This document shows, in pieces, positions 6,457 through 29,333 of a stretch of 64,000 nt of DNA. The notes under the pieces were generated by a model that was given only the letters and a program-made list of their open reading frames with translations, searched no databases and was not told where the DNA came from. Each line of letters opens with the position of its first letter. Position 1 is the first letter of the stretch. Source of the stretch: Minisyncoccota bacterium. GTDB taxonomy: Bacteria; Patescibacteriota; Minisyncoccia; Phycocordibacterales; CALRHW01. The stretch is taken from the NCBI GenBank assembly GCA_046350795.1, contig JAXLZT010000001.1, forward strand, positions 389,164-453,163, read 5' to 3'. The translations under genes were made by a program, and so were the position numbers.

Positions 6457-6541
6457 TGGTGGGCGAGGGGAGAGTCGAACTCCCATGGATTACTCCACTA
6501 GTTCCTAAGACTAGCGCGGCTACCAATTACGCCACTCGCCC
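6457..6541 (-). tRNA. tRNA-Leu (anticodon TAG)
   Basis: Hand-folded cloverleaf. Acceptor GGGCGAG/CTCGCCC, anticodon loop CTTAGGA, long variable arm, T-arm GGGAG-TTCGACT-CTCCC. Confidence 0.8.
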
Positions 6542-6593
6542 AAATTTTTAAAAAATACCTATTGTCGGTCACTGCTTTCTTCGCACAACCGAG

Positions 6594-6666
6594 TCCGCCC
6601 ACCAGGATTCGAACCTGGGACCCACCGCTTAAGAGGCGGTTGCTCTACCAACTGAGCTATGGACGG
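6594..6666 (-). tRNA. tRNA-Lys (anticodon CTT)
   Basis: 73-nt cloverleaf. Acceptor CCGTCCA/TGGGCGG, D-arm GCTC-AGTTGGTA-GAGC, anticodon loop CTCTTAA, T-arm CCAGG-TTCGAAT-CCTGG. Confidence 0.8.
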
Positions 6667-6763
6667 TTATTAAACCTTGGTTTCAAACTACCAAAACAGC
6701 TATGGACGGTTATTAAACCTTGGTTTCAAACTACCAAAACAGCTATGGACGGTTATTAAAAGT
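6658..6763. repeat. 2.4 tandem copies of a 43-bp unit that begins inside the 5' end of tRNA-Lys
   Basis: The unit gctatggacggttattaaaccttggtttcaaactaccaaaaca repeats with exact 43-bp period (tatggacggt at 6658, 6701 and 6744). Confidence 0.85.
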
Positions 6764-6785
6764 ACATTTTATTTAATACCGTATC

Positions 6786-6834
6786 CTACATAAAAGAATA
6801 GAGCCGGGCAAGAACAAGTCGTGCCACAGGCTCT
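6786..6834 (-). terminator. GC-clamp hairpin with ATTCTTTTATG tail
   Basis: AGAGCCGGGCA...TGCCACAGGCTCT stem, downstream of the 83-aa membrane-protein gene. Confidence 0.4.
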
Positions 6835-6865
6835 GGGGTGGGGAGATGGCGACTGTGATGGTGGC

Positions 6866-7117
6866 TCATCCGTGAGCGGTCTGACGCATCAGAAACGCGT
6901 GGTGCTTCTTGGCCAGTATCTCTGACACAACCAGAATGTTCACCGCTGCAATCGTGACGGTCACCAACATGCAAAGCATCGCTGGGAAGATCGGCCAGTA
7001 GAGGAAGTCCTTGGTGGTCTGGTGCTGGTACATGAAGTACACAGCCATGACCGCAACCACCAGGCCGATCAAGTCCGTCAGTATGAGCCACCTGATCTGG
7101 CGGCGCAACTTTTTCAT
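6866..7117 (-). CDS. small GC-rich two-TM membrane protein (83 aa)
   Basis: Two hydrophobic helices. SD AAAGGAA precedes the ATG at 7117. Preferred over the overlapping 128-aa ORF 6786..7172. Confidence 0.45.
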   Translation of the reverse strand: MKKLRRQIRWLILTDLIGLVVAVMAVYFMYQHQTTKDFLYWPIFPAMLCMLVTVTIAAVNILVVSEILAKKHHAFLMRQTAHG

Positions 7118-7261
7118 GCCATTGTTCCTTTTCAGCTAGTGTTTGTCGCATCTCCACGACCGGAACTGTCATTTTTTACGATTATGACAGCACCCACATT
7201 ATCTAGTTTTTTTTGATAAAAGTCAATAAAAGTAATACACATATATCGGATTCTTGTATTG

Positions 7262-7309
7262 GTTGAAAAATAAAATCCGCCGGACACCACGAACGTGGGC
7301 CGGCGGATT
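7262..7309 (-). terminator. hairpin AATCCGCCGG...CCGGCGGATT with T-rich tail on minus strand
   Basis: 10-bp GC-rich stem followed on the minus strand by TTTATTTTTC. Confidence 0.4.
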
Positions 7310-7342
7310 GGCGGAGGTGCGAGTTGGTTTGCAGGGATCGGG

Positions 7343-7678
7343 TCAAACACAAATGACCAAAGTCCTGTTGACGTGAAGTCTGATGTCTGTGATGAGCTCG
7401 TGGTCATCACTGCCGACGAGCGCTTGGATGATCTGCGACAGCTTGTTGAGGATCAGCCCTCGAATCGAGCTTGGCACCTCGGAGATTGCCAAGGTGATCA
7501 TCAAAGCCACCCCCTCCGGAGAGAATTCGTCCCCAGCCTTCTTGAGGAGAAGGTGATTGAATCCTTTCAGGTTTAGGTTGTCGATCGAAAACAGCCGATC
7601 ACACAGCTGGTTGTGTGGTGGGAGGACGATCACCTTCGTCTCACGGCCACACCGATCATTGTTCTCACTTGTCCGCAT
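7343..7678 (-). CDS. GC-rich hypothetical protein (111 aa)
   Basis: ORF with SD-like GAGAGG and its own terminator. A palindromic operator-like site lies upstream. No recognisable domain. Confidence 0.4.
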   Translation of the reverse strand: MRTSENNDRCGRETKVIVLPPHNQLCDRLFSIDNLNLKGFNHLLLKKAGDEFSPEGVALMITLAISEVPSSIRGLILNKLSQIIQALVGSDDHELITDIRLHVNRTLVICV

Positions 7679-7712
7679 CTGCTAGCCTCTCAATGTGCAA
7701 ATTTACCACGAT

Positions 7713-7733
7713 CCTTGTGGTAAAGGGTCGACG
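7713..7733. promoter_or_regulatory. perfect palindrome TTACCAC-GATCCTT-GTGGTAA upstream of the 111-aa gene
   Basis: 7-bp inverted arms located 35-55 nt upstream of the start codon at 7678. Confidence 0.3.
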
Positions 7734-7932
7734 CTCACCTGAGCGCAGACAAGAAAGAAATATATCACGATAAATAGAGTGGGTCAAATAAGAGGGGTGT
7801 GAGTATCTTTTGTTCAAGTTATACTTTGTGTTTTTTTATCCACCACTTTTTTATAGCAGGTAGATATTGTATAGAAATAAAAAATCCTCTTGAGGTTTTT
7901 TAATTTTTTCTTCCATGTTTAAATCCTAAATG

Positions 7933-8016
7933 TGCCCAGGGCGGGAGTCGAACCCACAAGAGCTTTCGCCCACAACATTTTAAGTGTTGCGCGTATACCA
8001 ATTCCGCCACCTAGGC
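7933..8016 (-). tRNA. tRNA-Leu (anticodon TAA)
   Basis: Cloverleaf with acceptor GCCTAGG/CCTGGGC, anticodon loop CTTAAAA, long variable arm, T-arm GTGGG-TTCGACT-CCCGC. Confidence 0.8.
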
Positions 8017-8487
8017 ATTTTTTCTATTTCTTCCACGATGAGTTGTTTTTAGACTATGGCAATTTGGACAAAGAATTCTTAGGTTTTCTAATCTGTTGTC
8101 GTTATGTTTACCATTAATATGATCCAACTCTAGAGGTAATCTACCATCTTCTGACCATTTTGCCCACCCGCATTCTTCACACATAGCTTTCATTAAACCA
8201 TCTCTTAGTAACCTTTTTTTAAGTTTAAAACTCTGATAGGTGCTATTTTTAATAAGGATTTTTTCAATAGGGATTATTGGTTTGCCAATGCCAATCAGTC
8301 CTTTATTCCAGCTTTTTCCTTTAAAATGGTCAATGGGTATTTTGTATAACTCAATGAACTTCTTTATTTGAGAATAATTGCCACCCGCAGGAATAAGCTT
8401 AAGTTTTTTAATGACTTGTCGTGTACTCGTAGAAGAAAGACAGGCCTCTAATAGTTGGGCCTTTGTCCAAGATTTTTTTCTCTCCAT
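8011..8487 (-). CDS. HNH endonuclease
   Basis: C-terminal HNH motif LELDHINGKHNDNRLENLRILCPNCHSLKT. The start was moved to the internal Met (MERKK) because the longer ORF runs through tRNA-Cys. The stop codon overlaps the 5' end of tRNA-Leu(TAA). Confidence 0.6.
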   Translation of the reverse strand: MERKKSWTKAQLLEACLSSTSTRQVIKKLKLIPAGGNYSQIKKFIELYKIPIDHFKGKSWNKGLIGIGKPIIPIEKILIKNSTYQSFKLKKRLLRDGLMKAMCEECGWAKWSEDGRLPLELDHINGKHNDNRLENLRILCPNCHSLKTTHRGRNRKNA

Positions 8488-8547
8488 ATAAAAAAGTATA
8501 CCTACCTGAGATAATGGAAATCTAAAGAAGTTATAGAGAAACACTAG

Positions 8548-8621
8548 AGGCGTAGGTCGGGGTTGAACCGACGTATAGCAGTTTTGCAGACTGCCGCGTT
8601 TACCAACTTCGCCACTACGCC
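8548..8621 (-). tRNA. tRNA-Cys (anticodon GCA)
   Basis: 74-nt cloverleaf. Acceptor GGCGTAG/CTACGCC, anticodon loop CTGCAAA, T-arm GTCGG-TTCAACC-CCGAC. Confidence 0.8.
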
Positions 8622-19704: not shown

Positions 19705-19746
19705 AGCTGCGCAAAGACGAAAGTCAGTGCGCAGTTTTCTTTTTTA
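19705..19746 (+). terminator. hairpin CTGCGCA...TGCGCAG followed by TTTTCTTTTTT
   Basis: 7-bp GC stem with a 14-nt loop. The tail overlaps the dnaE stop codon. Confidence 0.5.
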
Positions 19747-22700
19747 TAGAGCCTTTGCTTTCTCTGCTATCACGCTCACTGTGCCATTACGCATAGATAT
19801 TTTTCCTTTTATCGCAATACATTTTTCTGGTACAAAGAAATCTTTAAACTCCTGAAGCACGCGCGGAAAGACCACGCATTCTATGCTACCAGTGAGATCG
19901 CTGATTTTTAGGAAAAGCATTGAGTCACCCTTTTTAGTGACGATGTTTTTTGCTTCTTCGACGATACCACCAAAGACTACAGGCATTCCTTCTTTCGCTT
20001 CCTCACATATTTTTTTTATACTTGAGTCTTTGCCGGAAAGTTTTTCTGCAAATTTATCGAGTGGGTGACCAGAAATATACAAACCGAGTAATTCTTTTTC
20101 CCAGGTGAGTTTTTCGGCTGATGTGGCTGGAGACGCTGGCTCAAGTCGTAATGTCGGCACAGTAGATGTATCTGTCATGAGACCAAAAAGTGAACTTTGA
20201 TTGTCACCATTTTTATTTTTTTCTTTGTTGTAAGTTAAAAGATTTTCAAGGTTTGATAGCATTAGGCCTCTTTCTCCAAATTCATCCATCGCTCCGGCTT
20301 TTATAAGAGCTTCAAGAGATTTTTTATTTAAATTTTTATCTTTTATTCTGTCGAGAAAATCTGCAAGGGATTTAAATTTTCCTCCACGTTTTCTCTCGTC
20401 GATAATGGAAGTAGCGATACCTTCACCAAAATTTTTTATTGTTGTAAGTCCAAAACGAATTTTGTCGCCACCTTCTGTAATGCCTTTTCCCACACCACCC
20501 CTGTTGCTCACCGTAGTAAATCCTTCAAAACTTTCGTTTATATTTGGTGCGAGCACAGGTATGTTCATACGTTTACACTCTGCAATGATTTCGGCTATTT
20601 TTTCTACATCTCCAGAATCTGCCGTAAGCACAGCTGTCATGTAGATAGCAGGGAAATTGGCTTTCATATATGCAGTTTGATATGCCACCTTGCCATAGCT
20701 GGCAGCGTGAGCTTTGTTGAATCCATACGCAGCAAAAGGCTCAATGAGTTTCCAGAGTTGATCTGCCTTTTCTTTTGAAAGACCGTTTTTTACTAGACCT
20801 TCGAGAAGCTTGCCTTTTTGTGCCTCCATTTCTGCTGGGATTTTTTTACCCATAGCTTTTCGGAGTTTGTCTGCTTCTAGCCAAGAGTATCCGCCCAGAT
20901 GTATCGCCGTGAGCATGACGTCGTCTTGGTATGTGATGACTCCATATGATTGACTCAAAATATCTTTTAGTCGCGGATCTAGAAAAGTGACGAGTTGTGG
21001 ATTGTGCTTGCGTTCTATGTATTGAGGAATGGATTCCATCGGACCTGGACGGTAGAGTGCCACCATCGCATTGATATCAAAAATAGAAGAAGGTTTGAGT
21101 TCTTTTAGAAAACGAGTCATGCCTGTGCCGTTGAGTTGAAAGAGACCAGTCGTCTCACCACGCGCAAGCATTTCAAAAGTTTTTTTGTCATCTATCGGTA
21201 TATTTTCAATATCAATTTCTATTCCGTCTATTTTTTTTACTATAGATACAGCGTCGGCAAGAATAGAAAGATTTTTTATCCCAAGAAAGTCAAATTTGAG
21301 TAGACCGGCATCTTCTACCGCATGCATGTCGTACTGGGTGATGATTTTGTTTTCTCCTTTTGTATCGTATTGCAGTGGCACAAAATCAATAAGTGGATCT
21401 GGAGAAATCACAACACCAGCAGCGTGCACAGAAATGTGTCGGGCTGCTCCCTCAATCTTTTTTGCCATGTCTATGATCTGTGTCACCTCTTTTTCTTCTT
21501 TGTACATTTTTTTTAGTTCGGGTACTTCTTTGAGTGCTCGGTCTATGGTCATAGGAAAACCCTGTGCGCCCATAGGAATGAGTTTGGCTATGCGATCACC
21601 GAGGCCGTATCCGAGGCCGAGAGCGCGGGTGACGTCACGCACAGATCCGCGAGCCGCCATCGTACCGAACGTACCGATTTGAGCTACTTTGTCGGCACCG
21701 TATTTTTGTTTTGCGTATTCTATTACTTCGTCGCGACGGTTGTCAGCATAGTCCATGTCGATATCGGGCGCGGATGGACGCTCAGGATTGAGGAAGCGTT
21801 CAAAGGGGAGTTTGTAGGCAAGTGGATCTACGTTTGTGATGCGGGCGAGGTACGTAGTAAGCGAGCCCGCCACAGATCCTCTGATTGTTGTGAGTATTTT
21901 GTTTTCATGAGCAAAGCGAAGTAAGTCTCCCACCACGAGAAAGTAAGGAGCATATCCTTTGTCACGTATTACTTTAAGCTCATATTCAAGTCGGTCGATG
22001 GCTTCGGGACTTTTTTCCATTTTTCGTATAGCAAAACCCTCATATGCAATGCGTCGTAGCTCATCATCATATGACAGACCACTTTCTACTATAAATTTTG
22101 GAAACACCCATTTACCTAGCTCAAGCCCCAGATTGCACATATCGGCTACTTTCTGTGTATTTTCTATTGCGTCCGGCAAATTTTTAAAATATTTCAGCGC
22201 TTTTTTTTCATCAATAAAAGAAAAATCTTCTTCTGAATCCTCGAGAGCGCGATCACTCCAATCACTGTTGGTCTGTATAGACATGAGAGTCTTGCGTGCG
22301 AGCCGATCTTTTTCACTGAGATAATAAACGTCGTGGGCAGCAACTATTTGTGTGTTGGTTTCGCGGGCCAGAGAGACGAGTGCGTCCATTTTTTCTTGAT
22401 GATTTGGAATTTCTGGATGATGACTGATTTCTATAAAAAAATTTTCTGCATCGTATATTTTTTTATACCAAGAAATAAGTTCGCGAGCCTGATCTAGGTT
22501 ACGATTTTTTACAGCCATAGCTATGTCTCCAGAAAAAGAAGGAGAAATACACACCAGTCCTTCACGATGTAGTTCAAGAAGCTCTTTGTCTACGCGTGGT
22601 TTGTAATAAAAGCCTTCTAGGTGAGCTGAGGTGACGAGCTTTATAAGATTTTTATAACCAGTTTCATTTTTTGCTAATAGAATGAGTCGAAAGCGAGAAT

Positions 22701-22950
22701 TGTCGATACCACTTTGTTTATCATGCCGAGTACGCACAGCTAAATATGCATCTATGCCGATGATGGGTTTGATGCCTGCTTTTTTACATTCTTTATAAAA
22801 CTCAATCGCACCGTAAAGATTGCAATTGTCGGTGAGGGCTAGCGCCGTCATGCCTGCTTCTTTTGCTACTTCTACAAGCTCGTCTATTTTAGGTAGAGCG
22901 TTGAGCAAACTATAGTGGCTATGTGTGTGAAGGTGTATAAATTTGCTCAT
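19744..22950 (-). CDS. dnaE: DNA polymerase III alpha subunit
   Basis: N-terminal PHP domain (HLHTHSHYSLL), polymerase core and C-terminal OB fold. Confidence 0.9.
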   Translation of the reverse strand: MSKFIHLHTHSHYSLLNALPKIDELVEVAKEAGMTALALTDNCNLYGAIEFYKECKKAGIKPIIGIDAYLAVRTRHDKQSGIDNSRFRLILLAKNETGYKNLIKLVTSAHLEGFYYKPRVDKELLELHREGLVCISPSFSGDIAMAVKNRNLDQARELISWYKKIYDAENFFIEISHHPEIPNHQEKMDALVSLARETNTQIVAAHDVYYLSEKDRLARKTLMSIQTNSDWSDRALEDSEEDFSFIDEKKALKYFKNLPDAIENTQKVADMCNLGLELGKWVFPKFIVESGLSYDDELRRIAYEGFAIRKMEKSPEAIDRLEYELKVIRDKGYAPYFLVVGDLLRFAHENKILTTIRGSVAGSLTTYLARITNVDPLAYKLPFERFLNPERPSAPDIDMDYADNRRDEVIEYAKQKYGADKVAQIGTFGTMAARGSVRDVTRALGLGYGLGDRIAKLIPMGAQGFPMTIDRALKEVPELKKMYKEEKEVTQIIDMAKKIEGAARHISVHAAGVVISPDPLIDFVPLQYDTKGENKIITQYDMHAVEDAGLLKFDFLGIKNLSILADAVSIVKKIDGIEIDIENIPIDDKKTFEMLARGETTGLFQLNGTGMTRFLKELKPSSIFDINAMVALYRPGPMESIPQYIERKHNPQLVTFLDPRLKDILSQSYGVITYQDDVMLTAIHLGGYSWLEADKLRKAMGKKIPAEMEAQKGKLLEGLVKNGLSKEKADQLWKLIEPFAAYGFNKAHAASYGKVAYQTAYMKANFPAIYMTAVLTADSGDVEKIAEIIAECKRMNIPVLAPNINESFEGFTTVSNRGGVGKGITEGGDKIRFGLTTIKNFGEGIATSIIDERKRGGKFKSLADFLDRIKDKNLNKKSLEALIKAGAMDEFGERGLMLSNLENLLTYNKEKNKNGDNQSSLFGLMTDTSTVPTLRLEPASPATSAEKLTWEKELLGLYISGHPLDKFAEKLSGKDSSIKKICEEAKEGMPVVFGGIVEEAKNIVTKKGDSMLFLKISDLTGSIECVVFPRVLQEFKDFFVPEKCIAIKGKISMRNGTVSVIAEKAKAL

Positions 22951-22977: not shown

Positions 22978-23574
22978 ATGAAGAGTAAGTATCGATATAT
23001 TGTCGGAGTGGATGAGGTGGGGCGTGGACCTGTTGCTGGACCAGTGACGGTGGGTGCAGTGTGTGTTTCTGTGGATTTTGACATGAGTTTTTTGAAAGGT
23101 ATAAAAGATTCTAAAAAACTGTCTGCGCAAAAGAGGCGAGAGTGGAAAGAAAAAGTAAAAGAATTTCAAGAAAACGGTAATCTGGTGTGTGTAGTATCTT
23201 CTGTCGGTCCATTTACTATAGATCGTATTGGCATTAGTCGAGCGATAGCGCGTGCGATAAAACAATCCTTGTCACGCATCGGTGTGCGTCCCGATGAATG
23301 CATGGTACTTCTCGATGGAGGACTAAAGGCTCCTTGGGAATATTTTTTTCAAAAGACGATTATAAAAGGGGACGAAAAAGAGCCGGTAATAGCACTAGCT
23401 TCTATTTTTGCAAAAATTCACCGCGATACAAAAATGGAAAGACTTGCACAGCAGTATAAAAAATACGGTTTTGAAGAGCATAAAGGATATGGTACAGCAG
23501 ATCATATGAAGCAGATTAGAAAACATGGGTTGTCCAAGATTCACCGCAGAAGTTTTTTGAAGAATATAAAATAA
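22978..23574 (+). CDS. rnhB: ribonuclease HII
   Basis: GVDEVGRGPVAGPV active-site motif. Confidence 0.85.
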   Translation: MKSKYRYIVGVDEVGRGPVAGPVTVGAVCVSVDFDMSFLKGIKDSKKLSAQKRREWKEKVKEFQENGNLVCVVSSVGPFTIDRIGISRAIARAIKQSLSRIGVRPDECMVLLDGGLKAPWEYFFQKTIIKGDEKEPVIALASIFAKIHRDTKMERLAQQYKKYGFEEHKGYGTADHMKQIRKHGLSKIHRRSFLKNIK

Positions 23575-23649: not shown

Positions 23650-24375
23650 TCACTTGGCGATAGCCAGGGTCAGATCTGGGTGCGGCTCATAGCCCAAAGG
23701 CGTTGGAGCATCATCACGTAGTCCGCAGACCACGGATATGAGCTGTACGGCATTGTCCCGGCCCACCTTGACTGTGCTACTTGGTGCCGGCGTGTACCCC
23801 TCCCCGAGCTCAAAGCCGACCGCTTTGATGAGCTCGATGTACGGCACCCCAAGCGTGTCATCTTCAGCACCACAGTTGGGCGAGAAGTCTTCGATCAACT
23901 GTGGAAACACCAGAGTGTCTAGGATTTGCTCCATTTTGGCAAAGAACGCAAGGCTGAGCAGGCCAATCCTCGATCCACAGCAACTTGGCTTGTGCGAGAA
24001 CATGTCATCGACTCGTCGACTGTATCCATCGATGAGTGCTGCATAGTGGCGATCGAAGATGCCGTTGCCACCAGATATATTCCAATAGCCAAGGAGATGA
24101 TCAATGCTTTTTGTGTGTCCTGTTCGGTCAATGTACCGTTGCATGATCTCACGCGCTTCTGGATGGCGTAGGTGCTTTGCCGTCTTATCCATCCAGACCT
24201 GATGCTTGCCTCTCATGAACAGGGCTCGGTGGATACCGGCCACCCTTTTGAGACCCAGAACCTTCTCTTCTCCGTAGCAACGAAGTGCAGACTCGATCGC
24301 CCGGCTGAACTTGGGGCTCATTTCTCCCAGTAGTGCTCGTGCCTCCACTTGCCCAGCTTCTTCTTGCGTCATCAT
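23650..24375 (-). CDS. GC-rich soluble hypothetical protein (241 aa)
   Basis: Long ORF with SD GAAAGG. No recognisable motif. Confidence 0.5.
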   Translation of the reverse strand: MMTQEEAGQVEARALLGEMSPKFSRAIESALRCYGEEKVLGLKRVAGIHRALFMRGKHQVWMDKTAKHLRHPEAREIMQRYIDRTGHTKSIDHLLGYWNISGGNGIFDRHYAALIDGYSRRVDDMFSHKPSCCGSRIGLLSLAFFAKMEQILDTLVFPQLIEDFSPNCGAEDDTLGVPYIELIKAVGFELGEGYTPAPSSTVKVGRDNAVQLISVVCGLRDDAPTPLGYEPHPDLTLAIAK

Positions 24376-24406: not shown

Positions 24407-24577
24407 GTGAAGTGATTGTCTCAACGAACAGTCAGGATAGTAGCTAGTCACACGACTGGCCACTTCATATTTATTTCTGTCCAAAATAATGACATACAAA
24501 ACGCATTTAAGCAAGTCTAAATGGGCGCGTATCAATACCGTTGCCTTTTTTCTATAATTGTATATAATCTTTTTCAT

Positions 24578-24790
24578 ATGGTTGTAAGAATGCGAAGCAC
24601 ACGATCCCATACGGGCAATCGCCGATCTCATCATGCGCTAAAGATGAAGTCTCTTTCAAAATGCGCAAAGTGCGGTACTCCTACTATGGGACACCGAGCT
24701 TGTATCAACTGTGGTTCATACAAGGGACGGACAGTGATAGACAGACTTGCAAAAGTTACTAAAACAGCAAAAAAGAAAGAAAAAAAATAA
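24578..24790 (+). CDS. rpmF: ribosomal protein L32
   Basis: RRSHHALK...CAKCG...HRACINCGSYKGR zinc-ribbon pattern. Start moved to internal MVVRMRS. TATAAT at about 24564. Confidence 0.7.
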   Translation: MVVRMRSTRSHTGNRRSHHALKMKSLSKCAKCGTPTMGHRACINCGSYKGRTVIDRLAKVTKTAKKKEKK

Positions 24791-24839: not shown

Positions 24840-25742
24840 ATGGCAAATAGGCATCTATCGAGATCAATAGTCACACAATCACTCTTTGAATGGGACTTCA
24901 ATAAAAAGAGCGATAAAGAAGCTATGGAAATCTTTTCTCGTAATGCCAAGGAATTCGCTCCTGGCATGGGCGATTTTTCTTTTATGGAAAATTTGATGAA
25001 AAATGTCGTTGATAAAAGAAAAGACCTAGATGTGATCATTGAAAAAGCAGCACCTGATTGGCCGATAGACAAGATCTCTATTATCGACCGAAATATTTTG
25101 CGCATCGGCCTATACGAGTTACTTTTTTCAGACAGAAAGGAAGTGCCTCCAAAGGTGGCAATAAACGAAGCGATAGAGCTAGCAAAAACATTTGGTGGCG
25201 AGACTAGTGGTAAATTTGTAAACGGAGTACTTGGTGCTGTCTACAAAGAAATGGGTGAGCCTGGTAAAGAAGAGACATCAAAGCGCAAGCGACATCCAGA
25301 TATTCCAGATGATCAGGCTCCGATAGAAAAACTCGGTGGCGCTGTGGTATATGCAAAAGATGGCGAAGATATTTATCTAGCATTGGTACACGATGTGTTC
25401 GGTCATTGGACTCTATCAAAGGGGCATCTTGAAGAGGGTGAAGAAGACGATGCTGGTATAAAGAGGGTAATAAAAGATGAGCTTGGTTTAAAAATAAAAG
25501 TAGGACAGGAGCTGGGACATAATGGCTATATTGCTTTTGATCCAGAAAAGGGAAAGATAAAAAAGCAGGTACATTATTATTTGGCTGAATCAAAATACGA
25601 AGATATCAAACTAAAAGAAAGTGGTGGACTAGATGACGTGCGTTGGTTTAAACTCGCTGATATCCTTGACCTTAATTTTTATAATGATATTCTGCCGATT
25701 GTAACCAAGGCAATAAACATCCTCCTAGAAAAGGCAAAATAA
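24840..25742 (+). CDS. nusB: NusB antitermination factor fused to a C-terminal NUDIX-fold domain
   Basis: N-terminal 140 aa NusB-like (NILRIGLYELLF...ELAKTFGGE...FVNGVLG). C-terminal 150 aa with a Nudix-box-like GHLEEGEEDDAGIKRVIKDELGL. Confidence 0.7.
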   Translation: MANRHLSRSIVTQSLFEWDFNKKSDKEAMEIFSRNAKEFAPGMGDFSFMENLMKNVVDKRKDLDVIIEKAAPDWPIDKISIIDRNILRIGLYELLFSDRKEVPPKVAINEAIELAKTFGGETSGKFVNGVLGAVYKEMGEPGKEETSKRKRHPDIPDDQAPIEKLGGAVVYAKDGEDIYLALVHDVFGHWTLSKGHLEEGEEDDAGIKRVIKDELGLKIKVGQELGHNGYIAFDPEKGKIKKQVHYYLAESKYEDIKLKESGGLDDVRWFKLADILDLNFYNDILPIVTKAINILLEKAK

Positions 25743-25759: not shown

Positions 25760-26452
25760 ATGGCTATAGACTTCTCAAAATTTGAAGAAAAAGCTGGAGT
25801 AAAATTTAACGATAAAAACCTGCTAAAACAGGCTTTTGTTCATCGTTCATATATAAATGAAAACAAAGAATCAGGATTAGAGCACAATGAGCGACTCGAG
25901 TTTCTTGGAGACGCTGTGCTAGAGCTAGTGATCACTGATTATTTATACAAACAATATCCTGACAAAAATGAGGGTCAAATGACGAGCTACCGCTCTGCGC
26001 TAGTAAATGCTACGACTTGTGCGGAGGTAGCAACTGCTTTAGATATAAATGATTTTTTGCTTTTATCAAAAGGCGAAATGAAAGATACTGGCCGTGCTCG
26101 ACAATATATTTTGGCTAACACACTAGAGGCCATCATCGGTGCTATTTATTTAGATCAAGGATATGAAATTGCAAAAGAATTTATTTATAAAAACATTTCT
26201 CCACTTATTGATGGAATTATTTTAAAGGGAAGTTGGATAGATTCAAAAAGTTTATTTCAAGAAAAAGCACAAGAAATGGAAAGTGTTACTCCCGCGTATA
26301 AAACAATAAAAGAAACCGGACCAGATCATGATAAGAGATTTATGGTCGGTGTCTATTTAGGAAAAGAGCTTGTCGCTTCTGGAGAGGGGGAATCAAAACA
26401 AGATGCTGAGCAAGAAGCTGCTCGAAAAGGTCTTGAAAAGAGGGGATGGTAA
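25760..26452 (+). CDS. rnc: ribonuclease III
   Basis: ERLEFLGDAVLELVITDYLY signature plus C-terminal dsRBD. Confidence 0.9.
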   Translation: MAIDFSKFEEKAGVKFNDKNLLKQAFVHRSYINENKESGLEHNERLEFLGDAVLELVITDYLYKQYPDKNEGQMTSYRSALVNATTCAEVATALDINDFLLLSKGEMKDTGRARQYILANTLEAIIGAIYLDQGYEIAKEFIYKNISPLIDGIILKGSWIDSKSLFQEKAQEMESVTPAYKTIKETGPDHDKRFMVGVYLGKELVASGEGESKQDAEQEAARKGLEKRGW

Positions 26453-26508: not shown

Positions 26509-26916
26509 CTAGGTCATGCGATCTTCTTCGCCTTCTCTGGAGAAATGGAGATCGCTGGGAATCATGCCCCTTCTGATCACGTCCACCCAGTCAATGAACT
26601 CCTCTGTTCCGGCATACTTGCCGTTGACGTGCCTTTTCACGATGATGCCATTTCTTTCTGATCTGACGAAGCACCAGTTGGTGGGAAACGGAGCATCTCT
26701 TCGTGGTTCGACGATCACAGAGTCTCTTGTCGCGGTCTCAAAGAGACGCACGACCGCCTCTATGTCTCGATCATGCTTGTGGTCCGGAAGATTCGGGGGC
26801 TGGTCATCTGTGACCTTTGCCCGCTTTTCCCTTTTCTGCACAAAAAAGGTGATGAGTACCACGATTGCAGTCATCAGTGTGCCTGCACTCACGATGACGA
26901 TTTGTTCCTTGTGCAT
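26509..26916 (-). CDS. GC-rich small membrane-anchored protein (about 135 aa from the internal Met)
   Basis: SD AGGAGAA precedes the ATG at 26916. One TM helix (LMTAIVVLITFFV). Palindrome AGAGCA-CAA-TGCTCT at 26956-26970 and a TTGACT promoter at about 27004. Confidence 0.4.
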   Translation of the reverse strand: MHKEQIVIVSAGTLMTAIVVLITFFVQKREKRAKVTDDQPPNLPDHKHDRDIEAVVRLFETATRDSVIVEPRRDAPFPTNWCFVRSERNGIIVKRHVNGKYAGTEEFIDWVDVIRRGMIPSDLHFSREGEEDRMT

Positions 26917-27050
26917 ATGCTTCTCCTGATGAGTTGGTGTTGTGTACTTGTTTTTAGAGCACAATGCTCTTCCTAAACTATTTTTATAATAGATTTATAT
27001 ATAAGTCAAGTATTTTATACGCATTCAAATAATGCTAATCTTAGAAATAC

Positions 27051-29333
27051 ATGTATCTAAAAGGTCTGGAAATTTCAGGTTTTAAATCTTTTGCTAAAAA
27101 GAGCAATTTGGAATTTACTACACCTATTTCTGCTATTGTTGGACCCAACGGTTCTGGTAAATCAAATATTGCTGAAGCTTTTAGATTTGTTCTTGGTGAA
27201 CAATCTATAAAATCTTTGCGTGGAAAAAAAGGTGAAGATTTGATTTTTAATGGAAGTACAGAGGTTGGTCGATCAAATCGCGCTTCTGTAAAAGTTGTTT
27301 TTGATAATGCGCGTAGATTTTTGAATATTGATTTTGATGAGGTTTCTATAGAGCGCGTCGTTCATCGTGATGGTGTAAACGAATATTTTATAAACGGTAG
27401 TCAGGTGAGGCTCAAAGATATTATCGAGCTCCTTGCTGGTGCGCACATTGGCTCATCTGGGCACCATATTATTTCTCAGGGTGAGGCGGATAAAATTTTG
27501 AATGCAAATTTGCGAGAGAGGCGTTCAATGATAGAAGATGCTCTCGGATTAAAGATATATCAATACAAAAGACAAGAAAGCGAGAGAAAATTAGAGAAGA
27601 CAGAAGAAAATATTAAATCTGTAGAATCTTTGAGAAAAGAGGTCGCTCCGCATCTGAGATTTTTGAAAAAGCAGGTAGAGAAGGTTGAAAAAACTATGCA
27701 GATGAAAGAGGAGCTAAAGACTCTTTATTTGGAATATTTCAAAAGAGAAGACGATTATATAAAAAGAGCGAAAGAACAAAATGAGAAGGAGCGCGCGCCA
27801 CTACAGAGCGAGCTCGAAGCGCTCGAGGCGGACTTGGCGCGCGCGAAAAAAACCCTCGAAGACTCTACCGGAAAGGATAAAAAAAGTTTGGAGGTTATTG
27901 GTATTGAGGAAAACATCAGAAAAGTCAGAAATGCAAAAGACGCTTTGTTTAGAGACTTGGGCAGAATAGAAGGAGAGATATCTTCAGAGGAAAGAATAAT
28001 CAAAAAGCAAAAAGAGATCGCTCATTCTGAAGAGGGTAAAATGGTTAGCTTGAAAGACGTAGAAGGTTTTGCTAATGAAGTCGTAAAAAATGTTGAAAGC
28101 GCAGAAACCCTAAATGATTTAAATCAAATAAAGAAACTTTTCCAAAACATAAAAGAAATAGTTGTTAGTTTTATTTCAAAAAACAGGACACAAGTAAATG
28201 ATTCTCTCGTAAAAGAATCAGAGGAGCACATTGCTTCACTTCGTGCACAGAAAAAAGATTTAGAAAAACAAGCTTCTGATTTTGAAAAAGAAGAAAAGGA
28301 TCTGCAGGATAAATACAGTTTACTTCGTGCAGAAATAGAAAAAGAAAAAGACACAAACAGAGAGGCTGAAAGGCAAATGTTTGCTTTGATGAATAAGCAA
28401 AATGAGATCATTTCAAAAATGAACATCATTAAAGGTTCTCTGGAAAAATTGCGACTAGAAGAGGATGATTTTAGAAGAGAGCTCGGTGAGGCCGGTGTCT
28501 TGATAGGTAGAGCTGTCCTCGACTTTTCTTCTTTTACACTTCCACCCGTATCTATAGATATGTACGGAAAAGATGAGCCAAGGAGCGCCCAAGAGGATCG
28601 ACGTCGCGCTATTGAAAAAATAAAGATTCGCATAGAAGACGCTGGCGGTGGATCGAGCGATGAAATAATGAAGGAGTATAGAGAGGTAAGTGAGCGTGAT
28701 ACTTTTTTGGAAAGAGAGTTGGAGGATTTGCAAAAATCTGCGATTTCACTCAAGGCGCTTATTGTAGAACTCGATGAAAAACTTACAACAGAGTTTAAAA
28801 ATGGAGTAGAAAAAATAAACGTTCAATTTCAGGAATTCTTTTCTTTGATGTTTGGTGGTGGCAACGCAGAGCTTGTTGTGGTGAAAGAAAAAAAGAAAAA
28901 ACGCGCAGAAAACGACGCTGATATTTTTAGTGTATTGGAGATGGATGAAAATCAAATACCAGAAGAAGAGGATGGAGAGGAAGGTTTGGATATAAGCGTA
29001 AGTTTACCTCGCAAAAAAATAAAAGGCCTCGTGATGCTTTCTGGAGGCGAGAGAGCACTTACATCTATTGCTCTACTTTTTGCTGTTTCTCAGGTAAATC
29101 CTCCTCCATTTATTATTTTGGATGAAACAGATGCCGCTTTGGATGAAGCAAATTCAAAAAAGTATGGAGATATGATAGAAAATCTTTCAAAGTATTCTCA
29201 ACTTATTTTAATTACACACAATCGTGAGACTATGTCTCGAGCAGGAATATTGTATGGAGTGACAATGACATCTGGAGGTGTATCAAAGTTACTTTCTATT
29301 GAGTTTGAAGAGGCTGTGGCGGTGGCAAAATAA
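27051..29333 (+). CDS. smc: SMC-family chromosome segregation ATPase (short form)
   Basis: Walker A GPNGSGKSN, long coiled coil, signature LSGGERALTSIALLFA and Walker B ILDETDAALD. Confidence 0.8.
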   Translation: MYLKGLEISGFKSFAKKSNLEFTTPISAIVGPNGSGKSNIAEAFRFVLGEQSIKSLRGKKGEDLIFNGSTEVGRSNRASVKVVFDNARRFLNIDFDEVSIERVVHRDGVNEYFINGSQVRLKDIIELLAGAHIGSSGHHIISQGEADKILNANLRERRSMIEDALGLKIYQYKRQESERKLEKTEENIKSVESLRKEVAPHLRFLKKQVEKVEKTMQMKEELKTLYLEYFKREDDYIKRAKEQNEKERAPLQSELEALEADLARAKKTLEDSTGKDKKSLEVIGIEENIRKVRNAKDALFRDLGRIEGEISSEERIIKKQKEIAHSEEGKMVSLKDVEGFANEVVKNVESAETLNDLNQIKKLFQNIKEIVVSFISKNRTQVNDSLVKESEEHIASLRAQKKDLEKQASDFEKEEKDLQDKYSLLRAEIEKEKDTNREAERQMFALMNKQNEIISKMNIIKGSLEKLRLEEDDFRRELGEAGVLIGRAVLDFSSFTLPPVSIDMYGKDEPRSAQEDRRRAIEKIKIRIEDAGGGSSDEIMKEYREVSERDTFLERELEDLQKSAISLKALIVELDEKLTTEFKNGVEKINVQFQEFFSLMFGGGNAELVVVKEKKKKRAENDADIFSVLEMDENQIPEEEDGEEGLDISVSLPRKKIKGLVMLSGGERALTSIALLFAVSQVNPPPFIILDETDAALDEANSKKYGDMIENLSKYSQLILITHNRETMSRAGILYGVTMTSGGVSKLLSIEFEEAVAVAK

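Follow-up and report, generated by a model that had tools for sequence, protein, structure and literature searches.

A NusB orthologue fused to an Ap4A-hydrolase-like Nudix domain with a degenerate Nudix box in the Parcubacteria group

In a 64,000-nucleotide stretch of bacterial DNA, referred to as the window in the following, we find a nusB gene that continues in frame into a second domain of the Nudix fold. On balance, we favour the view that its product is a NusB orthologue joined to a catalytically crippled Nudix binding module, and that it acts in rRNA antitermination and processing. The Nudix domain probably binds a nucleotide or an RNA 5' end instead of cleaving it, as judged from its sequence. 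No description of a NusB-Nudix fusion was found in the literature searched.

The original prediction had read the gene as a single continuous frame of about 140 residues of NusB and 150 residues of Nudix. The single frame was borne out, both domains being detected by Pfam, and so was their order; the exact limits differ and include a separate linker (Table 1). A frameshift at the junction was looked for and none was found: the fused reading frame is continuous in 80 of 80 species loci and in about 240 listed protein clusters. It is shared by independent NCBI, JGI, ENA and Logan assemblies, so that a sequencing or assembly error, be it a frameshift or a chimera, is practically excluded. An identical protein (P0001) is encoded on six contigs, one of them 562 kb long, and the fused frame also occurs on contigs from about 0.85 Mb upwards. 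In the database, P0001 is named 'transcription antitermination factor NusB [Candidatus Paceibacterota bacterium]', and this naming as NusB alone hides the second domain entirely. Besides the fused gene, there is no second NusB or Nudix among all open reading frames of the window. The AF2 model of the fused protein (pTM 0.52) leaves the inter-domain geometry undefined.

Table 1. Coordinates of the fused gene, its parts and its neighbours in the window
Feature	Position	Strand	Basis and remarks
rpmF (ribosomal protein L32)	24578..24790	+	Pfam Ribosomal_L32p, E 9e-16; upstream gene of the probable operon
Fused nusB-Nudix gene	24840..25742	+	One uninterrupted reading frame, 300 aa + stop; Pfam NusB + NUDIX
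NusB domain, residues 1-138, all-helical	24840..25253	+	Pfam, AF2, Foldseek
Inter-domain linker, residues 139-161, GEPGKEETSKRKRHPDIPDDQAP	25254..25322	+	Low pLDDT, yet conserved
Nudix-fold domain, residues 162-300, Ap4A-hydrolase type	25323..25739	+	Pfam PF00293, AF2, Foldseek
Degenerate Nudix box, residues 195-217, GHLEEGEEDDAGIKRVIKDELGL	25422..25490	+	Sequence reading
Gly262-Gly263 where active relatives have the out-of-box loop Glu	25623..25628	+	Alignment
rnc (RNase III)	25760..26452	+	Pfam Ribonuclease_3 + dsrm; 17 bp downstream of nusB

The domain is present in no fewer than 579 GTDB species of the Parcubacteria group, and the survey of orthologues found the fusion, beyond the 80 species loci, in hundreds of protein clusters. 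The prediction that this is not a standard arrangement holds for model bacteria; it fails for the Parcubacteria group, where the fusion is the norm. The orthologues fall into two clades, clade 1 (n=232), to which the window's protein belongs, and clade 2 (n=120), which is Komeilibacteria-like, about 287 residues long and equipped with a canonical catalytic site. The predicted rpmF-nusB-rnc neighbourhood was confirmed by Pfam on the flanking genes. A promoter-like site lies ahead of rpmF (positions 24541-24568) and no terminator-like site was found between rpmF and nusB; the two genes probably form one operon. Their order is repeated at loci L081 and L082, and rnc lies directly downstream of the fused gene in essentially all of the 80 related loci. 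Because the order rpmF-nusB/NUDIX-rnc-smc is common to both clades, the fused genes are orthologous and of single origin. In E. coli, by contrast, the arrangement is ribH-nusB. Neighbouring orphan reading frames gave no Pfam or PHROG matches, and neither a boxA nor an rRNA leader was found in the 64 kb, where an Rfam scan returned four tRNAs only.

The N-terminal domain is a conventional NusB, as had been predicted. Residues 7-136 match Pfam NusB (PF01029) with an E-value of 4e-34 and 118.2 bits against a cut-off of 23.1, and the NCBIfam equivalog for nusB, TIGR01951, scores 126.2 bits against a cut-off of 88.35. The AF2 model places helices at residues 4-138, with pLDDT values mostly between 80 and 96, and Foldseek superimposes this part on Aquifex NusB from the NusB-NusE-BoxA complex 3r2c with a TM-score of 0.87 and an rmsd of 1.8 Å (TM 0.86-0.88 across 3r2c and 3r2d). 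Phe126 and Asp83, both invariant in both clades, align to Phe122 and Glu81 of Aquifex NusB, which form the BoxA-U8 pocket, with Phe122 stacking on U8 itself (PMC3177189). The seven-helix fold, the residues of this pocket and a conserved N-terminus are thus shared with canonical NusB from E. coli, Aquifex aeolicus and Thermotoga maritima. We assign the gene as the NusB orthologue of the organism, in a variant architecture: canonical NusB is a single domain of 130-150 residues, whereas the window's protein has 300 and carries the linker and a 139-residue Nudix domain after α7, the boxA-binding helix. The linker, although modelled with pLDDT below 50 at residues 141-154, is conserved; in the close family, Gly139, Glu140, Pro141 and Gly142 are invariant and Lys143, Glu145, Ser147 and Lys148 near-invariant, and throughout the family it is basic, with a median pI of 8.3. 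RsmB profiles also match the NusB part in the NCBIfam search. Of proteins in which a NusB-type RNA-binding domain precedes an rRNA-modifying enzyme domain, only RsmB/Sun, the 16S rRNA m5C967 methyltransferase, is well known; there, however, the N-domain is a NusB paralogue and its partner an active SAM methyltransferase.

The C-terminal domain passes the threshold of the Pfam NUDIX family (PF00293; residues 167-282, E 3e-11, 44.1-46.4 bits against a gathering threshold of 21.1), in agreement with the prediction, and is modelled by AF2 as an α/β/α fold. Its nearest relatives in sequence and fold are Ap4A/Ap6A hydrolases. Foldseek aligns it to the Aquifex Ap4A hydrolase aq_158 (3i7u) and Thermus Ndx1 with a TM-score of 0.84, and also to Chlamydia CT771, the C. 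elegans and human (NUDT2) Ap4A hydrolases and mycobacterial MutT1 (Rv2985); the non-catalytic NrtR and AraR are also among the matches. The signature W-T-x-x-K-G-H-x-E-x-G-E is shared with these enzymes. On the sequence level, the window's protein matches Ap4A-type enzymes at E-values of about 1e-5 to 1e-7, and the clade-2 orthologue P0294 matches 3i7u at 4e-19. The domain therefore seems to descend from an Ap4A-hydrolase-type enzyme. Assignments to IDI, MutT, MutT1 or RppH were rejected, as their NCBIfam scores of 12-32 bits are far under the cut-offs: the RppH profiles (NF001936 and related) reach 22-24 bits, and 37.6 bits for P0294, against a cut-off of 118, and the MutT1 8-oxo-(d)GTP phosphatase profile NF052459 reaches 29-32 bits against a cut-off of 475, matching the Nudix part only and lacking a counterpart to the histidine-phosphatase domain of the two-domain MutT1 architecture.

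Of the complete Nudix box GX5EX7REUXEEXGU, the window's protein retains Gly195, Glu201, Arg209, Ile211, Glu214, Gly216 and Leu217, which agrees with the predicted match to G-x5-E-x7-R, and reads R-V-I-K-D-E where R-E-U-x-E-E is expected. The prediction that the glutamates of this motif are replaced was overstated: the first is lost to Val210 (GTA, nt 25467-25469), but the second is changed conservatively to Asp213 and the third is kept as Glu214. Its suggestion of a possibly inactive Nudix domain nevertheless gains support from the alignments. In pairwise HMMER comparisons at about 25% identity, on which all residue equivalences to Ap4A hydrolases given here rest, Val210 aligns to Glu58 of the human enzyme, whose structure 4ijx was solved with the E58A mutant protein, and Gly263 aligns to human Glu110 (HEHQAYRW). 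A glutamate six residues ahead of the conserved aromatic is likewise found in CT771 (DEICDVQW) and in the Aquifex enzyme (WEVKDAKF), and free-standing relatives carry it at the position of Gly263 or one before. We take this loop glutamate to be catalytic in Ap4A hydrolases, on the model of Glu103 of the C. elegans enzyme and by analogy to Glu120 of RppH. In RppH, the catalytic Mg2+ ions are bound by Glu53, Glu57, Gln37 and the out-of-box Glu120 (PMC7144940).

A canonical box is found in only 59 of the 232 proteins of the window's clade. The loop site is Gly-Gly in 227 of 232 clade-1 proteins, whereas it is Glu in 97 of 120 clade-2 orthologues, and a canonical box together with the loop Glu occurs in none of the 232. 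On a tree of the NusB domains of these 232 sequences, the box positions 201, 209, 210 and 213 change 38-85 times, against 80-90 changes at ordinary surface positions; position 210 alone accounts for about 85 and is V, G, K, A, I, N or C in other clade-1 members. Glu201 and Arg209 vary within the clade as well. In clade 2, 116-120 of the 120 proteins keep Glu201, Arg209, Glu210, Glu213 and Glu214; given this conservation and the strong resemblance to the Aquifex Ap4A hydrolase, the clade-2 domain is probably active.

The residues at putative ligand-binding positions have fared differently from those at catalytic ones. Lys194, Lys242 and Tyr281 align to Lys42, Lys89 and Phe128 of human Ap4A hydrolase, of which the two lysines contact phosphates and the phenylalanine stacks on the adenine (PMC4734340); the equivalent of human Tyr82 (stacker/P1) is ambiguous, as it aligns to Pro235. 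Lys194, Lys242, Tyr281, Tyr246, Trp269 and Glu214 are invariant in both clades, with only 1-9 changes in 232 sequences. In addition, the window's clade has acquired invariant surface motifs of its own, namely HDVFG, GGLDD and LNFYNDILPxVTKA. Sequence identity of the Nudix domain is 0.29 between the clades, 0.65 within clade 1 and 0.49 within the canonical clade, while the corresponding values for NusB are 0.59 between the clades and 0.72 within clade 1. The Nudix domain thus changed rapidly at first and has since been tightly constrained in clade 1. For the closest pair (the window's gene and L001), to which the estimate is limited because synonymous sites are saturated in wider pairs, its dN/dS is about 0.10, which indicates purifying selection. 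Taken together, the valine in place of the 'RE' glutamate, the Gly-Gly in place of the loop glutamate, the retained pocket residues and the new invariant motifs lead us to read the domain as non-catalytic: it appears to be catalytically dead or crippled, with its binding pocket seemingly retained. The canonical box that 59 of the 232 clade-1 members still have counts against this reading.

An alternative that we judge unlikely is that the domain is still an active pyrophosphohydrolase of the Ap4A-hydrolase or RppH-like kind, working through a metal site rearranged around Glu214, Asp213, Glu201 and Asp265/Asp266, and that NusB brings it to a substrate such as the nascent rRNA leader, which would present a 5'-triphosphate or an Np4N cap. 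Such a site is conceivable, since Glu214 (the equivalent of MutT Glu57) never varies, an acidic residue occupies position 213 in 210 of 232 proteins and Asp265 and Asp266, close to the lost loop glutamate, are near-invariant (210-212 of 232). The retention of binding-type residues, the fully canonical and hence probably active sister clade and the weak similarity to the RppH and MutT1 profiles all point the same way. Against this stand the valine at the 'RE' glutamate, at a position that changes in a neutral-like manner, and the Gly-Gly at a loop site where all solved and free relatives conserve a glutamate. The human enzyme was, moreover, crystallised as a mutant at the very residue equivalent to Val210, and Glu201 and Arg209 vary in the clade, too.

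It is very improbable that the Nudix domain is instead a decaying, functionless relic whose fusion to NusB came about neutrally as the genome was compacted. Reduced genomes often contain fused genes and the catalytic residues are indeed degenerate, but the low dN/dS, the dozens of positions that are invariant over hundreds of species, the absence of truncated or interrupted copies from all 80 species loci and the better conservation of the domain within the window's clade than within the canonical clade all speak against decay.

Lastly, the domain might be purely a protein-protein scaffold that replaces factors of the SuhB type and docks NusB on RNAP, NusA, NusG, S4 or RNase III, with its nucleotide pocket irrelevant. 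We consider this quite unlikely, since the invariance of Lys194, Lys242 and Tyr281 in the active-looking and the degenerate clade alike suggests that the pocket is in use. The clade-specific surface motifs and the acidity of the domain (pI 5.4, family median 5.3; the NusB domain is acidic, too) would nevertheless suit a scaffold, and there is precedent: non-catalytic Nudix domains are typically found in multidomain proteins, where they bind small molecules or mediate interactions with other domains (PMC5389931), and in E. coli SuhB an enzyme fold plays a structural role in the rrn antitermination complex, where it binds to the RNA of the rrn leader and is required for integrating NusB/E (PMC6614801). 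This is a role that an accessory domain tethered to NusB could fill, although SuhB has an unrelated fold, is a separate polypeptide and binds NusA-AR2.

For the binding module that we favour, the closest parallel in logic is CFIm25 (NUDT21), the 25-kDa subunit of mammalian cleavage factor Im, which lacks two of the box glutamates and binds, but does not hydrolyse, Ap4A and ATP; as one of its subunits, it contributes RNA binding to a co-transcriptional RNA-processing machinery (PMC2425470). Unlike the window's domain, it is eukaryotic, belongs to the NUDIX_4 family, forms a stand-alone dimer, acts in 3'-end processing and is not closely related in sequence. NrtR and AraR show the Nudix fold as a non-catalytic ligand sensor in transcription control, yet its fusion partner there is a winged-helix DNA-binding domain, and the ligands sensed are ADP-ribose or sugars. 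RppH (NudH), whose profile is far below cut-off here, demonstrates RNA 5'-end binding in this branch of Nudix proteins, a single cleft accommodating RNA 5' ends as well as NTPs and (p)ppGpp (PMC7144940).

We picture the following course of events. In an ancestor of the Parcubacteria group, a single fusion event would have attached an Ap4A-hydrolase-type Nudix domain to NusB. Of the three carboxylates by which related enzymes coordinate the catalytic Mg2+ ions, two have been lost in the window's clade; the lysines and aromatic residues aligned to phosphate- and base-binding positions were kept and new invariant motifs were added. The NusB part would bind boxA RNA with ribosomal protein S10 and nucleate the rRNA antitermination complex; the Nudix module, tethered by the conserved 23-residue linker that leaves helix α7, would clamp a 5'-polyphosphate nucleotide without cleaving it. 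Since the module is tethered to a sequence-specific RNA binder, its likeliest ligand, speculatively, may be the 5' end of the nascent boxA-containing rRNA leader; its acidity disfavours non-specific RNA binding. The alternative ligand, likewise speculative, is a free (di)nucleoside polyphosphate. With either one, the NusB-S10-boxA complex might be stabilised or regulated and coupled to processing by RNase III, which is encoded by the next gene of the operon.

NusB, one of the best-conserved transcription factors of bacteria, is usually regarded as a plain boxA binder with a single domain; in a whole radiation of ultra-small bacteria it is permanently joined to a Nudix domain. With active-looking and dead-looking versions in sister clades, at the same locus and adjoining RNase III, the family offers a ready comparative system for asking what a module that binds nucleotides or RNA 5' ends does in rRNA antitermination and processing, and it bears on how accessory factors such as SuhB are replaced in reduced genomes. 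It may also exemplify the passage from enzyme to pseudo-enzyme under continued, even tightened constraint. More broadly, though with low probability, NusB-Nudix could link rRNA antitermination to the chemistry of RNA 5' ends or dinucleoside polyphosphates, with the window's clade as a non-hydrolysing 'reader'; if so, this reader would anchor the 5'-polyphosphate end of the leader, or sense Ap4A, NTP or (p)ppGpp to tune ribosome synthesis.

The fused nusB-Nudix gene encodes two recognizable domains, in agreement with the original prediction of a NusB followed by a C-terminal NUDIX fold: Pfam matches NusB at residues 7–136 (118 bits) and NUDIX at residues 167–282 (44 bits against a gathering cut-off of 21.1), and TIGR01951, the NCBI nusB equivalog model, scores 126 bits (cut-off 88). 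The AlphaFold2 model (mean pLDDT 83.9) likewise displays two well-folded domains, with helices spanning residues 4–138 in the NusB half and an α/β/α sandwich (162–299) in the Nudix half. The residues joining them (141–154) are modeled with low confidence and, since the pTM is 0.52, the mutual orientation of the domains is not fixed in the model. The Nudix domain of the window protein is acidic. The linker is basic family-wide (median pI 8.3), and close relatives show little or no variation in its residues GEPGK-E-SK; it may constitute a short binding motif instead of a passive tether. No second NusB or Nudix ORF was found among the ORFs of the 64-kb window.

This architecture is widespread. 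Six contigs, one of them 562 kb long, encode an identical protein, whose NCBI name is just ‘transcription antitermination factor NusB [Candidatus Paceibacterota bacterium]’. The best 120 protein clusters are nearly all ~300 aa long (identity 69–100%); both Pfam domains are recorded for most of them, and the invariant Nudix-domain motifs align in all 120. An exhaustive search with the C-terminal 150 aa against 1.84 billion 50%-identity representatives yielded 164 matches at E ≤ 1e-10, including 37 full-length NusB-Nudix fusions with identities as low as 29%. In a survey of GTDB with one genome per species, the Nudix domain is encoded in at least 579 species. The best 80 of these all belong to Parcubacteria-group lineages (including Yonath-, Taylor-, Kaiser-, Nomura- and Zambryskibacteria), and each carries the fused gene (about 290–325 aa), which is followed directly by RNase III in the same orientation and preceded by rnhB at a distance of a few hundred bases. 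An assembly or frameshift artefact is ruled out by the same continuous fusion in the identical proteins, the clusters and all 80 species loci; the gene is a genuine, orthologous and lineage-wide NusB-Nudix fusion. The arrangement had been called non-standard; in this lineage it is the standard one. We found no description of the fusion in the literature searched. Dozens of third-party metagenome assemblies titled ‘uncultured Candidatus Saccharibacteria bacterium’ (e.g. loci L001, L005, L007 and many others) also carry a Parcubacteria-type NusB-Nudix gene, with Nudix domains 59–85% identical to that of the window; the name is probably an incorrect or catch-all label.

The predicted rpmF-nusB-rnc neighborhood is read directly in the window, where rnhB is followed by an orphan minus-strand ORF, rpmF, nusB-Nudix, rnc, a second orphan ORF and a short SMC. 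Gaps of 49 bp (rpmF/nusB-Nudix) and 17 bp (nusB-Nudix/rnc) separate the central genes, and no terminator-like sites lie between rpmF, nusB and rnc in the window. Neither orphan ORF has a match in Pfam or PHROG. The upstream one looks like a lineage-specific insertion, because the rnhB-to-nusB spacing is only ~300 bp in many related loci; at L081, a locus of the canonical clade discussed below, the rnc-smc gap contains no called gene. Typical bacterial SMC proteins have ~1150–1200 residues and the orthologue in L081 has 850, so the 760 residues of the SMC-like protein point to a coiled coil or hinge that is greatly shortened. With so little space between their start codons, the divergent dnaE and rnhB seem to share a very compact control region. 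Apart from the four tRNAs, the 64-kb window contains no rRNA, rRNA leader or any other Rfam family.

Features of the window discussed in the text
Feature	Position	Strand	Remarks
Four-tRNA cluster	6460–8621	−	In GC-richer stretch (4–8 kb at GC 0.48–0.50)
dnaE (1068 aa)	19744–22950	−	Divergent from rnhB
rnhB	22978–23574	+	Start codon ~27 bp from dnaE start codon
Orphan ORF (241 aa)	23650–24375	−	Between rnhB and rpmF; GC 0.54 vs 0.40 in window
Fused nusB-Nudix gene	24840–25742	+	One uninterrupted ORF, 300 codons
Inter-domain linker (residues 139–161)	25254–25322	+	Predicted disordered, pLDDT below 50
Orphan ORF (151 aa)	26509–26964	−	Between rnc and smc; GC 0.50
SMC-like protein (760 aa)	27051–29333	+	SMC_N head halves span residues 2–745

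Judged by sequence and model, there is nothing unusual about the NusB half, which superposes on Aquifex NusB of the NusB-NusE-BoxA complex (Foldseek TM 0.87, rmsd 1.8 Å), and its family-invariant Phe126 and Asp83 align with AaNusB Phe122 and Glu81, which make up the BoxA-U8 pocket (PMC3177189). BoxA follows the C-terminal helix α7 on its way from the N-terminus of NusB to the interface with NusE (PMC3177189); as the linker begins where this helix ends, the Nudix domain would be tethered beside the RNA-binding face.

The Nudix half matches CT771, human NUDT2, the Aquifex and C. elegans Ap4A hydrolases, Thermus Ndx1 and mycobacterial MutT1 among PDB sequences. Foldseek retrieves the same enzyme set (TM 0.84 to 3i7u and 1vc8), together with the non-catalytic regulators NrtR and AraR. 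Both comparisons indicate descent from an Ap4A-hydrolase-type enzyme. In pairwise alignments at about 25% identity, Lys194, Lys242, Tyr281 and Asp283 correspond to Lys42, Lys89, Phe128 and Glu130 of human Ap4A hydrolase, in which the two lysines contact the P1-phosphate, Phe128 stacks the adenine and Glu130 contacts its amino group (PMC4734340); Val210 and Gly263 correspond to Glu58 and Glu110, and Tyr82 aligns ambiguously, with Pro235. The Foldseek match 4ijx is the crystallized E58A protein. RppH binds its catalytic Mg2+ ions through E53 and E57 of the box, Q37 and the out-of-box E120 (PMC7144940), and by analogy the loop Glu of Ap4A hydrolases would hold a catalytic metal as E120 does. Within the window protein, the box (GX5EX7REUXEEXGU) corresponds to GHLEEGEEDDAGIKRVIKDELGL (residues 195–217), which fits G-x5-E-x7-R-[E>V]-I-K-[E>D]-E-L-G-L. 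The reported replacement of the REUXEE glutamates by RVIKDE thus applies to Val210 (codon GTA, one transversion away from GAA) and, conservatively, to the Asp at the second position, but the third, Glu214, is retained. For the C. elegans enzyme, we take Glu103 to be the loop Glu with a catalytic role.

This degeneracy is clade-specific and reaches past the box to the loop Glu. Our comparison covered 232 fusions from the window's clade, drawn from close clusters, the 80 species loci and divergent representatives, with changes counted on a phylogeny of the NusB domain only. Box positions 201, 209, 210 and 213 change 51, 38, 85 and 60 times, ordinary surface positions 80–90 times, and Lys194, Tyr230, Lys242, Tyr246, Trp269, Tyr281 and Glu214 only 1–9 times. 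Gly-Gly replaces the loop Glu in 227 of the 232 proteins, and together with the drifting box this supports the suspicion of an inactive fold. We consider it unlikely that the domain is still active through a rearranged metal site, for which the conserved Glu214, acidic residue 213 and Asp265/Asp266 are candidates. A canonical box persists in a quarter of the clade (59/232); not one of the 232 proteins combines it with the loop Glu. A canonical box and the loop Glu are both present in all of the about 12 nearest free-standing relatives (~140 aa). The Nudix domain is nonetheless under strong purifying selection (dN/dS ~0.10, NusB ~0.03, window vs closest species locus); for pairs further apart, non-synonymous change in the box segment is ~2× that in the remaining domain.

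A search with P0253, a divergent fusion protein, uncovered another large clade, of ~287 aa proteins, with names including Candidatus Komeilibacteria, a separate candidate phylum inside NCBI's Parcubacteria group, and ‘Patescibacteria group’, on contigs of about 0.85 Mb and more. In 120 clusters of this clade, R209, E210, E213 and E214 are invariant, E201 is found in 116 and the loop Glu in 97; Lys194, Lys242, Tyr246, Trp269 and Tyr281 are invariant, as in the window's clade. Its member P0294 matches the Aquifex Ap4A hydrolase over the whole domain at 4e-19 (window's domain, 1.5e-5). Because the order rpmF-NusB/NUDIX-rnc-SMC at its locus is shared with the window, both clades are orthologous and derive from a single fusion event. 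Identity between the window protein and this clade is 0.59 for NusB and 0.29 for Nudix, compared with 0.72 and 0.65 within the window's clade and 0.66 and 0.49 within the canonical one; these values point to a burst of Nudix-domain change followed by tighter constraint. With this burst arose invariants specific to the window's clade (HDVFG, Tyr230, GGLDD and LNFYNDILPxVTKA).

Of the three positions whose carboxylates serve catalytic metals in relatives, then, two are drifting or have been lost in the sequences of the window's clade, while the putative ligand contacts and the new motifs are fixed. We infer that the Nudix domain of the window protein does not hydrolyze efficiently but works by binding, which fits the general pattern of non-catalytic Nudix domains in multidomain proteins, where they bind small molecules or other domains (PMC5389931). 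Precedents are CFIm25, an RNA-binding subunit that binds Ap4A/ATP without hydrolysis (PMC2425470), and SuhB, an enzyme fold required for integrating NusB/E on rrn leader RNA (PMC6614801). As the ligand, we favor the 5′-polyphosphate end of the boxA-containing leader, which would be a substrate in the canonical clade, because tethering to a sequence-specific RNA binder would bring a kinetic gain mainly for a macromolecular target, and because RsmB, in which an rRNA methyltransferase is joined to a NusB-like domain, offers a parallel. The RNA cleft of RppH also accommodates NTPs and (p)ppGpp (PMC7144940), so the alternative is a regulatory ligand, either a free (di)nucleoside polyphosphate or an alarmone. 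Named database entries of the fused protein are labeled just NusB. The family thus combines known kinds, a NusB and what appears to be a Nudix pseudo-enzyme, in a new and widespread architecture, and its informative feature is the split into an apparently active and an apparently inactive clade.
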